Notes: generated from the sequence alone by a model not told the origin. A stretch of 64,000 nt of DNA from an uncultured cyanobacterium (GCA_963793425.1 CAWCAG010000005.1:1280001-1344000); one strand, 5' to 3'; positions 32,005 to 33,798 are shown, counted from the stretch's first letter. Program-made: numbers and translations.

Positions 32005-32607
32005 TTACTGGTCAATTAACTCGGAGTTAAACTCGTTGAAGGAACGTCTTTTTAATTGTATTGACTCAGAACGAGGCAGGAGATCAAAGACCTCCCGGAA
32101 AACACTATCAATGTCTTCAAACTTAGCTTGTCCAGTTTGGTTAAAGACAATCTCACGATTTTGATTTAGTAAGACAGTCTGAGGAATAGCCCCTTGGTAG
32201 TAATAACCTACTTCTTCAGGATTGTATTCATCCTTGATAGGAATAGAATCAACATTAATGGGTATAAAACTGGCTACTTTGCCATAAAATCGCTGTAGCT
32301 GGGAGATAACCTCAGAAAATCTTTTGCAATCGCTGCTATCTTCTACATAAAAAACTAACAGAGCAACTTTGTCTCTTTGGAAAGATTCCATCAAGGTCAT
32401 GCGGGGCGGAACTAAAGAACCATTTCCAGCATAAAGAGCAAAAATATTCCCATCAAACCTATCATCTTCAAGCCCTGCCGTTGCTGAGGGGGTTCCTAAC
32501 ACTAAGAAACTAATTAGCCCAACCAGGAGCGTTATTGAGCAAAAGCGCAAGGAAATTTTTCTTGAATGGAAGTTATTTAGCCAGTAGCGCAACCGCGAAA
32601 AAATCAT
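32005..32607 (-). CDS. Thioredoxin-like thylakoid protein (photosystem I accumulation factor family)
   Basis: DDRFDGNIFALYAGNGSLVPP and C-terminal RRSFNEFNSEL. Confidence 0.75.
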   Translation of the reverse strand: MIFSRLRYWLNNFHSRKISLRFCSITLLVGLISFLVLGTPSATAGLEDDRFDGNIFALYAGNGSLVPPRMTLMESFQRDKVALLVFYVEDSSDCKRFSEVISQLQRFYGKVASFIPINVDSIPIKDEYNPEEVGYYYQGAIPQTVLLNQNREIVFNQTGQAKFEDIDSVFREVFDLLPRSESIQLKRRSFNEFNSELIDQ

Positions 32608-32691
32608 AAAGTTCTATTTACCAATTAAATCAGCTATTATTAATAGTACAGCTAGGGGCTGTGGCTCAGTTGGATAGAGCAAGCGCCTCCT

Positions 32692-33542
32692 GAACAATCG
32701 GGCCTCTTGGGGGAAACCCTAAGTAGTGAATGCGGTCAAATTCAAGGAAGCCTAAGTCTGGTCAAACAGAGAGGGTAATCTTGAGCCAAGCTTATAATTT
32801 GTCGATTCGGCAAGTTATTAAGAAGGTGCAGAGACTGGTTGAATGAGAGCTAAAAATGATGGACTATAATGTCTCATCAAAAGTAGAGCAAAGAGGCATT
32901 CTGACCGGGATGTTATTAGGTGCAAGTAGGAGGAATAAACAAAATTTCTACCTCCAACACCTGAATTTGCCAGAGGAATATGTTTTGTTTAAAAAGCAAC
33001 TCCTTGAACAAATCATTCGCAAGCCAGTTAGTCTTCGGGAAGAGAAAAGTAGTAAAGGCGAACCCTTGATACGTTTAGAACCAAAGTTGATTCCTTTAAC
33101 TAGGGTTTTGGTTAAGAGGCTTTATCAAGGAACAACACCTATAATTACAAGTAAGTTCCTGCGTTTTTTAACCCCCCCAGGTATAGCAATTTGGTTTATG
33201 GATAAAGGTTCTAAATCTTTTAAGAAGAAGAACGGCAAGATCCATAGCCTAGAAGTTAACTTCAATACCAATATCTGCCAAGCAGAAAATGAATTGATAG
33301 TAGCTTATTTTGCTGAAGTTTGGGGTTTTAAGTGGGGATTAAGCAAAAGTGGAAAGGCTTACCGTTTAAGGATGGGAACGAAAGAAGGTAAAAGATTTTT
33401 TGATTTTCTTCGTCCCTATATCCATCCCGCTATGCTCTACAAAATAGAAACCTCTTGTCAACATAACGGCCGCCACCTAAAAGAGCTTTTGCTCTGATGG
33501 TGAAGGGATAGTCCAGAGAGTAAGGAAACTTACACAAATCTG
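32692..33542 (+). ncRNA. Group I intron (IC3/Azoarcus-like core with a P7.1 insertion)
   Basis: Preceded by U, ends in G; P1 CCU-GA-ACAA-UC-GGG with U.G; P AAATTCAAGGAA, Q AATCTTGAGC, R GTGCAGAGACT, S AAGGGATAGTCC; P3 GCGGTC/GGCCGC; GAAA-capped P2 and P9. Confidence 0.95.
32856..33497 (+). CDS. Intron-encoded double-motif LAGLIDADG protein (I-SceI-like), catalytic Asp residues substituted
   Basis: Motif 1 ILTGMLLGAS, motif 2 LTPPGIAIWFMDKGS, C-terminal LRPYIHPAMLYKI. Confidence 0.88.
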   Translation: MMDYNVSSKVEQRGILTGMLLGASRRNKQNFYLQHLNLPEEYVLFKKQLLEQIIRKPVSLREEKSSKGEPLIRLEPKLIPLTRVLVKRLYQGTTPIITSKFLRFLTPPGIAIWFMDKGSKSFKKKNGKIHSLEVNFNTNICQAENELIVAYFAEVWGFKWGLSKSGKAYRLRMGTKEGKRFFDFLRPYIHPAMLYKIETSCQHNGRHLKELLL

Positions 33543-33591
33543 AAGCGCTAGGTCGCCGGTTCAAATCCGGCCAGTCCCGTTTTTTCAGTGT

Positions 33592-33798
33592 ATGGCTTGC
33601 CGTTTTGTTGATGATCAATTTAGCCACTTGAGTTTAATTTGGTATAAGCAATGGTTGGTTGCCTTTTCTCTGGCAACATTAGCTTTTTTCATGGTGTCTG
33701 CATTTAGCCAACCAGCACAAGCTTTATCATTAGTTGGTAATGACAGCACCGAACAAGTAGAAGAAACTGTTGAGAATGCTAAAGATGCTATTGATTAA
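33592..33798 (+). CDS. Small exported protein or remnant; start uncertain
   Basis: Hydrophobic stretch ending PAQA followed by an acidic tail. Confidence 0.35.
   Translation: MACRFVDDQFSHLSLIWYKQWLVAFSLATLAFFMVSAFSQPAQALSLVGNDSTEQVEETVENAKDAID

Follow-up and report, generated by a model that had tools for sequence, protein, structure and literature searches.

The tRNA-Arg(CCU) gene of an uncultured cyanobacterium is split by what its sequence hallmarks identify as a group I intron, within which a LAGLIDADG open reading frame (ORF) is looped out of a stem, P7.1, located between the core helices P7 and P3′. The end of this ORF is formed from core helices and its start codon lies in a conserved hairpin, and translation of the gene and folding of the ribozyme would probably compete. 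The element lies in a stretch of 64,000 nucleotides (nt) (GCA_963793425.1 CAWCAG010000005.1:1280001-1344000), called the window below; unless a relative is named, positions are counted from its first letter.

A group I intron in tRNA-Arg(CCU) and its relatives

The tRNA-Arg(CCU) gene (32655-33579) is interrupted directly 3′ of the anticodon by an intron of 851 nt (32692-33542). A scripted join of 32655-32691 and 33543-33579 gave a canonical 74-nt tRNA-Arg(cct) in ARAGORN, and no tRNA was called by ARAGORN in the unspliced DNA of the locus. Genomes bearing the intron would therefore seem to lack tRNA-Arg(CCU) in automatic annotation, which constitutes an annotation gap. The hallmarks of group I introns are present: a U.G pair in P1 at the 5′ splice site, the helices P2, P3, P4, P7, P8 and P9, all counted, and a terminal G (G33542). 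The Rfam model RF00028, with a gathering score of 50, reached 53.2 bits when 6 kb were searched, and 47.7 bits, slightly below the cut-off, in a whole-genome search; the model is broken by the ORF, and its 3′ half is misaligned into it. Subgroup IC3 is characterised by a small core, direct joining of P7 to P3′, tetraloop contacts of L2 and L9 and an anticodon-loop site. Possible IC3-like traits seen here are the GAAA loops on P2 and P9 and, in compact relatives, an AGAC or AAAC junction. Judged by its sequence, the interrupting element is a group I intron and probably belongs with the small ones of tRNA genes.

A DNA search of 61 related genomes retrieved an ORF-containing intron in 10 and an ORF-less intron in 22, the rest giving contiguous exon matches or nothing. 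The presence of the intron and of the ORF is patchy among these genomes, as expected of a homing element. A protein-based scan of contigs added 16 loci, every one in the same tRNA intron, and the named contigs with relatives were all cyanobacterial (Coleofasciculus, Oscillatoria and Spirulina). Across the order, 218 of 401 sampled genomes matched at an expectation value (E) <= 1e-10, although some of the weakest matches may be exon-only; 60 of the 218 were fetched, as a hand-picked and not a random sample. De-duplication, with the exclusion of L030, in which the landmark pattern failed, left 97 different introns (numbered with the prefix L): seven compact ones, in which P7 is followed by AGAC or AAAC and then P3′, 53 ORF-less ones with a hairpin of 37-147 nt at this place, and 37 with an ORF insert of 628-664 nt. 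Some counts refer to 43 ORF-containing slices, which include duplicates of the 37 different introns.

The ORF is looped out of P7.1 and ends in the ribozyme core

An initial annotation of the window had placed the ORF in the loop of a P7.1 stem, and its coordinates for P7 (GAGACT), both P7.1 strands, P3′, the P8 arms and the TGA all proved correct on direct reading (Table 1). The two P7.1 strands form 11 pairs flanking one bulged A (-10.8 kcal/mol, RNAduplex). Covariation, the check which that annotation had proposed, was found among homologues with and without the ORF. In 22 aligned ORF-containing relatives two of the outer pairs alternate (GC in 12 and UA in 10; UA in 10, AU in 9 and GC in 2), while the three innermost pairs of the chosen register are broken in 5-9 of the 22, the register there differing by lineage. 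RNAalifold recovered P7.1 unprompted in 12 ORF-less relatives, with changes on both sides at seven of nine pairs, and anchored counts over the 53 ORF-less introns and the 43 ORF-containing slices gave three to six pair types at positions 2-9. Strands hybridised with their own partners averaged -13.0 kcal/mol, compared with -7.8 kcal/mol for swapped partners (96 sequences). The placement of the ORF in the loop of a genuine stem between P7 and P3′ is thus upheld by covariation, by RNAalifold and by pairing energies, and the accompanying premise that compact introns join P7 to P3′ directly holds in all seven compact relatives. Since P7.1 is kept in 53 ORF-less introns, these comparisons identify it as a conserved domain of the ribozyme, present with or without the ORF, whose first role is structural, and not as an ORF-specific device.

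The core helices around P7.1 were assessed with a partition function computed, unconstrained, on the whole 927-nt precursor, and with the same 22 relatives. P3 (32732-32737 with 33468-33473) forms with p ~0.96 and shows changes on both sides at two of six pairs; P8 forms with p ~1.0, and its outer pair covaries (CG in 17, UA in 5). The 5′ strand of P7 is identical in 22 of 22 relatives, so covariation is uninformative there. The P1 pairs, U.G included, were predicted by RNAalifold for 12 of 12 ORF-less relatives. A hand-drawn set of seven helices was 95.2% paired, against 88.4% in shuffled alignments (none of 500 reached it) and 29-43% in slid registers, and both-side changes occurred at 12 pairs of the counted structure.

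The locus holds only one long ORF (32856-33497). Its final 15 codons are formed from the 3′ strand of P7.1, the joiner J7.1/3, P3′ and P8, an overlap of 46 nt. Codons 205-213 comprise P3′ and, of P8, the 5′ strand, the loop and some of the 3′ strand, and the TGA falls in the internal loop of P8; the annotated overlap with P3′ and most of P8, and the stop inside P8, can be read directly from the coordinates. Since these codons lie in core helices, a ribosome completing the ORF would have to melt them.

How far the frame reaches into the core varies among relatives. In 27 of the 37 ORF-containing introns the stop is a TAA 10 nt into P3′/P8; six have deeper stops (+16, +25, +27 in the window, +40, +72 and +75), two stop at -4 or -11, and two carry truncated ORFs (L008 and L065), so that the stop occupies nine different positions relative to P3′ in the 35 intact ORFs. 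The +27 stop of the window is due to a single additional base on the 3′ side of P7.1, also present in a congener, by which P7.1 gains a pair and the tail is read in another frame; the congener's ORF continues to a TGA across the 3′ splice site. Both in fact carry one extra base per P7.1 strand (32844 and 33457; alignment columns 301 and 961), pairable as U.G. In the family alignment the tail of the window protein is unrelated to those of its relatives, and residues 201-212 (numbered on the 212-residue form) have a predicted local distance difference test score (pLDDT) <50 in the AlphaFold model, compared with 88.9 overall. A variable tail read into the ribozyme fits the 'core creep' hypothesis, set out in the accessible part of PMC3073962, in which the ORF frame extends into the intron core. 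The varied stop positions allow a direct test of this hypothesis.

A candidate third closing helix would pair 32883-32890 with 33433-33440, an 8-bp complement between N-terminal codons and the codons of a conserved M-L-Y-K. It is 87.5% paired in 22 sequences, which does not exceed what shuffling yields: 29 of 500 shuffles were as high, and 120 of 500 equalled its single double change. Conserved residues are encoded by both strands and, together with P7.1 and the start-codon hairpin described below, the helix would give a three-way junction.

The start codon lies in a conserved hairpin

A local hairpin missed by the initial annotation encloses the U and G of the ATG at 32856 and the whole of the ATG at 32859, the latter being the start homologous to that of the relatives. 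It forms with p ~1.0 in the precursor. All seven counted pairs form in 36 of the 37 different relatives, the remaining one having a single A.C mismatch, whereas the 6-nt loop has 11 variants. In seven relatives the G that ends the start codon has become A and the C opposite it U, the latter change turning a Ser codon into Leu, and another pair has undergone a G-C to A-U double change once. In the 22-sequence alignment, none of 500 shuffles reached the covariation score of the hairpin, two of 500 reached its count of double-changed pairs, and slid registers were 16-60% paired. With its start codon in a conserved helix and a purine tract in P7.1, the region has the structural arrangement of the I-TevI type. 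On this evidence, the hairpin is plausibly a clearer and better supported block to initiation than the purine tract in P7.1.

In some lineages an AAGGAG lies 8-9 nt upstream, in the P7.1 stem, paired with CUCCUU. The seven relatives in which ATA replaces the ATG start, the compensating change preserving the hairpin (L005, L008, L048, L050, L051, L055 and L064), have the strongest Shine-Dalgarno (SD) match, AAGGAG at 8-9 nt upstream (-7.7 to -8.4 kcal/mol). Five of their seven frames are full-length (206 codons), L048 ends early (199 codons) and L008 is truncated. An internal promoter for the ORF was also considered, and the one promoter-like match, compared with 2.5 expected by chance, was taken as a chance hit. 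Its -10 element is a perfect hexamer at the hairpin loop (32865-32870), and its transcript would miss the start codon.

Translation and ribozyme folding as probably competing processes

These features suggest the following course of events. A LAGLIDADG gene of the I-SceI type occupies the loop of P7.1, and the closing of P7.1 would join P7 and P3′ across about 600 nt. The coding frame has run past the loop into the ribozyme, where it crosses the second strand of P7.1, the joiner and P3′ and enters P8. With the start codon locked in its hairpin and a weak purine tract held in P7.1, the folded precursor or the excised intron would rarely be translated; a ribosome that did reach the last 15 codons would open P7.1, P3 and P8, and no catalysis by that molecule could take place meanwhile. 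If the folded RNA keeps translation low and the ribosome unwinds the core, the two processes compete, and we consider this account, with the looped-out ORF, the tail in the core and the locked start as its parts, the probable one. The initial annotation had proposed that translation and ribozyme folding exclude each other, giving a translate-or-splice switch. The structural overlap underlying that proposal stands, with its helices and their covariation; the switch would be a step beyond them, and its logic was already established for the td intron of phage T4 and its I-TevI.

Several observations weigh against competition as the explanation. In the unconstrained ensemble the pairs of P7.1 form with p ~0.53, lower than those of P3 and P8. 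P7.1 occurs without any ORF, so hiding a ribosome-binding site cannot explain its existence. The GAGAG upstream of the ATG is indeed inside the stem, as annotated, but it is a poor candidate for the ribosome-binding site: the 16S tail of the same genome is of the usual kind, and its pairing with GAGAG spans no more than 3 bp (-2.7 kcal/mol). Nor are SD-like 4-mers enriched upstream of the ORF (24 of 43 slices, versus 37 of 53 ORF-less introns at the same place), the median hybridisation with the 16S tail being -4.8 kcal/mol in the 43 ORF-containing slices and -5.0 kcal/mol in the first 24 nt of the 53 ORF-less inserts. The stems of the start hairpin are also coding, and part of their conservation could be at the protein level; against this stand the fixed synonymous positions and a compensatory change that replaced an amino acid. 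Finally, the window protein lacks the catalytic residues (see below), so that the usual purpose of such control, keeping a toxic nuclease in check, may be absent.

Much of this would be accommodated if P7.1 were a mere structural clamp and the overlaps were neutral by-products of ORF insertion and stop drift, with no regulation involved. The 53 ORF-less introns with P7.1, the absence of SD enrichment, the shifting stop and the predicted disorder of the tail would all follow. What such neutrality hardly explains is the start hairpin: 36 of 37 relatives retain it in full, the other having one mismatch, and its compensatory changes come at the expense of the start codon and of one amino acid, a pattern difficult to obtain without selection on the RNA. 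We regard the neutral explanation as rather unlikely.

A LAGLIDADG protein without catalytic acidic residues

The ORF product matches the whole of the Pfam profile PF03161 (LAGLIDADG_2; positions 1-168 of 168) with E 3e-29. Its AlphaFold model shows the LAGLIDADG fold of a monomer with two motifs, and its nearest structural matches are I-WcaI (template modelling score, TM, 0.75) and I-SceI (TM 0.74). This assigns the predicted structure to the LAGLIDADG_2/I-SceI fold family. According to the accessible part of PMC3384342, the penultimate acidic residue of each LAGLIDADG motif is the most conserved active-site residue and binds metal. In the window protein these positions are occupied by Ala and Lys, which leaves it without the acidic residue that an active nuclease carries in each motif. 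Among the 37 relatives, acidic residues occupy both positions in 9 (the Coleofasciculus group and L066), one position in 8 and neither in 20; a variety of residues occurs at the catalytic positions, next to invariant neighbours. In a tree of 35 different proteins, a branch with support 95/88 separates the 19 rows without either residue from all others, so that a single loss suffices.

Selection on the frame was estimated from the ratio of nonsynonymous to synonymous substitution rates (dN/dS; Nei-Gojobori, alignment columns 14-200). The median in the group lacking both residues was 0.169 (range 0.089-0.295, 80 pairs with dS 0.05-3, two duplicate rows included), compared with 0.134 among proteins with both residues and 0.133 among those with one. 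Values were 0.11-0.16 within the Trp/Lys clade, 0.17 between the window and its congener, and 0.15-0.19 between the window and more distant members of its group. By these ratios, the frame is kept by selection after the loss of the nuclease residues, which is at odds with decay, in which the window ORF would be what is left, no longer translated, of an endonuclease gene that used to be mobile. The loss of both catalytic residues, the weak SD match and the truncation of L008 and L065 would suit a remnant, but the frame is intact over 213 codons and the predicted fold is confident, and decay appears very improbable.

Retention under selection without nuclease residues, as expected of a maturase, is what the group lacking both residues displays, and the sequences suggest a non-nuclease role, possibly that of a maturase.

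Loop contacts and a possible role in splicing

The P7.1 loop contains 4-7 nt complementary to the loop of P6 in 44 of the 53 ORF-less introns. The two loops co-vary through at least five pairings (G-runs with C-runs, CAGGAA/UUCCUG, CAGAG/CUCUG, CAGCA/UGCUG and GGAGC/GCUCC), and own loop pairs average -6.56 kcal/mol, compared with -4.58 kcal/mol when swapped, which suggests that they form a tertiary contact. The nine ORF-less introns without this complementarity make up a subgroup with a short P7.1 hairpin (L083, L086, L088, L094-L097, L099 and L106). No contact with the P6 loop was spotted in ORF-containing introns, whose sequences were inspected by eye only.

These observations bear on the possibility that the protein is no longer a homing endonuclease and acts as an RNA-binding maturase or autoregulator, with the start hairpin and P7.1 as its binding platform and translation in the service of splicing. 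The Ala and Lys of the window, the 20 of 37 relatives without either acidic residue (9 having both), their position on one side of a well-supported branch and their low dN/dS are in keeping with it, although purifying selection proves some function and not which. A protein could also replace the P6-P7.1 contact of ORF-less introns, the apparent absence of which in ORF-containing ones was, however, judged by eye. Small tRNA introns of this type self-splice well without protein, which speaks against a need for such a helper. As for precedents, the structure of the bI3 maturase (2ab5) is among the fold matches, and a bacterial one, the LAGLIDADG maturase of a Thermotoga 23S intron, is described in the accessible part of PMC3984707. 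Taken together, we see a maturase or autoregulator as a possible, though not the favoured, explanation.

A more specific version is more doubtful still: that the protein gave up cleavage and survives as a splicing helper or autoregulator replacing a P6-P7.1 contact lost on ORF insertion, with the start hairpin as its putative binding site. If so, binding of the protein would both fold the ribozyme and shut off its own translation.

Possible gain and loss of P7.1 and of the ORF

The history of the intron classes was examined on a tree of the intron core (quick method, 216 columns), in which 55 of 93 inner branches are open. This poorly resolved tree needs eight or nine changes of ORF state, whether by gain or by loss, its starred branches forcing only one per class. 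Two compact introns, L026 and L029, fall inside a P7.1-bearing clade, and the other five form a distant clade (support 100, branch length 0.85); P7.1 may thus have been lost outright at least once, within the low resolution of the tree. The short-hairpin subgroup has a stem near-identical to that of some ORF-containing introns and groups with the ORF-containing L009, L065 and L066 on the core tree. Its members could be clean ORF losses or represent the state before insertion.

Features of the locus

Coordinates are collected in Table 1. The divergent neighbour gene upstream (32005-32607, minus strand) has a product of 200 residues that contains a thioredoxin-like domain (PF13098, E 9e-9). Downstream, a 68-codon ORF (33592-33798) had no match in a Pfam search.

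Table 1. Features of the tRNA-Arg(CCU) locus in window coordinates, with examples of loop complementarity in relatives.
Feature	Position	Strand	Basis
tRNA-Arg(CCU) 5′ exon, last letters the anticodon CCU	32655..32691	+	Exon joining and ARAGORN
P1: exon CCU and intron GA pair with UCGGG (32698-32702)	32689..32702	+	Window letters; RNAalifold
Group I intron, 851 nt, 3′-terminal omega-G = G33542	32692..33542	+	Rfam RF00028
P3 5′ strand GCGGUC, pairs with 33468-33473	32732..32737	+	Partition function, covariation
P7 5′ strand GAGACU, pairs with AGUCC 33510-33514	32831..32836	+	Window letters
P7.1 5′ strand GTTGAATGAGAG, includes the GAGAG tract	32838..32849	+	Letters, covariation, folding energies
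LAGLIDADG ORF, 213 codons, ATG 32856 in frame with TGA 33495-33497	32856..33497	+	ORF scan, Pfam
Start-codon hairpin, 8 pairs and a bulged U, loop 32865-32870	32857..32879	+	Partition function, relatives
Motif 1 catalytic codon: Ala, where active enzymes carry Asp or Glu	32922..32924	+	Profile 'llG-x' versus 'ILGD' of PDB 6x1j; family alignment
Motif 2 catalytic codon: Lys, Asp in I-SceI	33204..33206	+	HMMER, FMDKG versus FMDDG of I-SceI
P7.1 3′ strand CTCTTGTCAAC, within the ORF	33452..33462	+	Letters, covariation, folding energies
P3′ GGCCGC, within the ORF, codons Gly-Arg	33468..33473	+	Window letters, alignment, partition function
P8 hairpin (CACC 33474-33477, GGTG 33499-33502), holds the final seven codons of the ORF and the TGA	33474..33502	+	Partition function
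P9 hairpin, GAAA loop	33520..33533	+	Both-side changes at 2 of 5 pairs (22 relatives)
tRNA-Arg(CCU) 3′ exon	33543..33579	+	Exon joining and ARAGORN
Examples of P6-P7.1 loop-loop complementarity (ORF-less relatives)	L010:1501-1841, L018:1501-1835, L021:1501-1848, L085, L104, L107

Comparison with known systems

The antagonism between translation and folding is already textbook knowledge for phage introns, and the core proposal of the initial annotation is not new in kind. ORFs in peripheral loops, their overlap with the core and sequestered ribosome-binding sites are all described in the accessible part of PMC3073962, which reports for td/I-TevI of phage T4 a sequestered ribosome-binding site, an overlap of ORF and core, and a splicing defect on ribosome entry. 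The window intron resembles that system, as there presented, in its peripheral-loop ORF, in the 3′ end that feeds core helices and in a hairpin-sequestered initiation region. The host gene of td is a translated mRNA, whereas that of the window is a tRNA. I-TevI is a GIY-YIG protein encoded in P6 with a 20-nt overlap (P6a/P7); the window ORF encodes a LAGLIDADG protein, lies between P7 and P3′ and has a 46-nt overlap (P7.1, P3′ and P8). Moreover, td/I-TevI has a late promoter that bypasses the block, and none is evident in the window, where the single promoter-like match falls short of chance expectation.

Closer in host is the tRNA-fMet intron of Synechocystis PCC 6803 with I-SspI, also a cyanobacterial group I intron in an anticodon loop whose ORF overlaps helices (PMC3073962, Table 1). 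In contrast to the window, the entry there gives a PD-(D/E)xK enzyme, an ORF in P1, a 61-nt overlap with P1/P2 and another tRNA. The ORFs listed in that table sit in P1, P6a and P8, and none in P7.1.

The window protein shares its fold and both LAGLIDADG helices with I-SceI and I-WcaI (PDB 1r7m and 6x1j), and a C-terminal P-Y-(I/V)-x-x-x-M-x-Y-K region aligns with I-SceI; unlike them, it has both metal-binding Asp replaced (Ala and Lys), at about 20% identity. Like the LAGLIDADG maturases bI3 (PDB 2ab5) and that of Thermotoga 23S, as the latter appears in the available part of PMC3984707, it is intron-encoded and retained apart from DNA cleavage. It differs from them in that its host is a bacterial tRNA intron, in being known from sequence alone, and in a weaker fold match to 2ab5 (TM 0.54).

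A literature search, mostly without subscription journals and with supplements outside its scope, turned up no account of tRNA-Arg(CCU) introns in cyanobacteria, nor of any bacterial tRNA intron that carries a LAGLIDADG gene. According to the accessible part of PMC5733544, earlier reports were limited to introns in tRNA-Leu and tRNA-fMet; it relates the tRNA-Leu intron to those in tRNA-Ile(CAU) of Azoarcus and tRNA-Arg(CCU) of Agrobacterium, and the 'introns' of 22-49 nt that it describes are a different kind of thing from the window intron. The available parts of PMC8450103 and PMC4853749 hold nothing bearing on the tRNA-Arg(CCU) intron. New here, as far as the papers searched go, are an intron family widespread in cyanobacteria and a conserved protein that appears nuclease-dead; the analysis also adds the putative P6-P7.1 contact. 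A clade that lost its catalytic residues while purifying selection continued may also mark a bacterial route from homing endonuclease to RNA cofactor.

The Agrobacterium tRNA-Arg(CCU) intron likewise follows the third base of the anticodon, and neither it nor the Azoarcus tRNA-Ile(CAU) intron is known to have P7.1 or an ORF. All of these are small tRNA introns with GAAA loops on P2 and P9, and the compact relatives share the direct connection of P7 to P3′. Beyond them, the cyanobacterial family adds the P7.1 hairpin and either a P6 loop contact, in ORF-less members, or an ORF insert of 630 nt. The tRNA-Arg(CCU) family thus offers a natural series for comparison, running from a compact core through a P7.1 hairpin with a P6-complementary loop to the 630-nt ORF insert.

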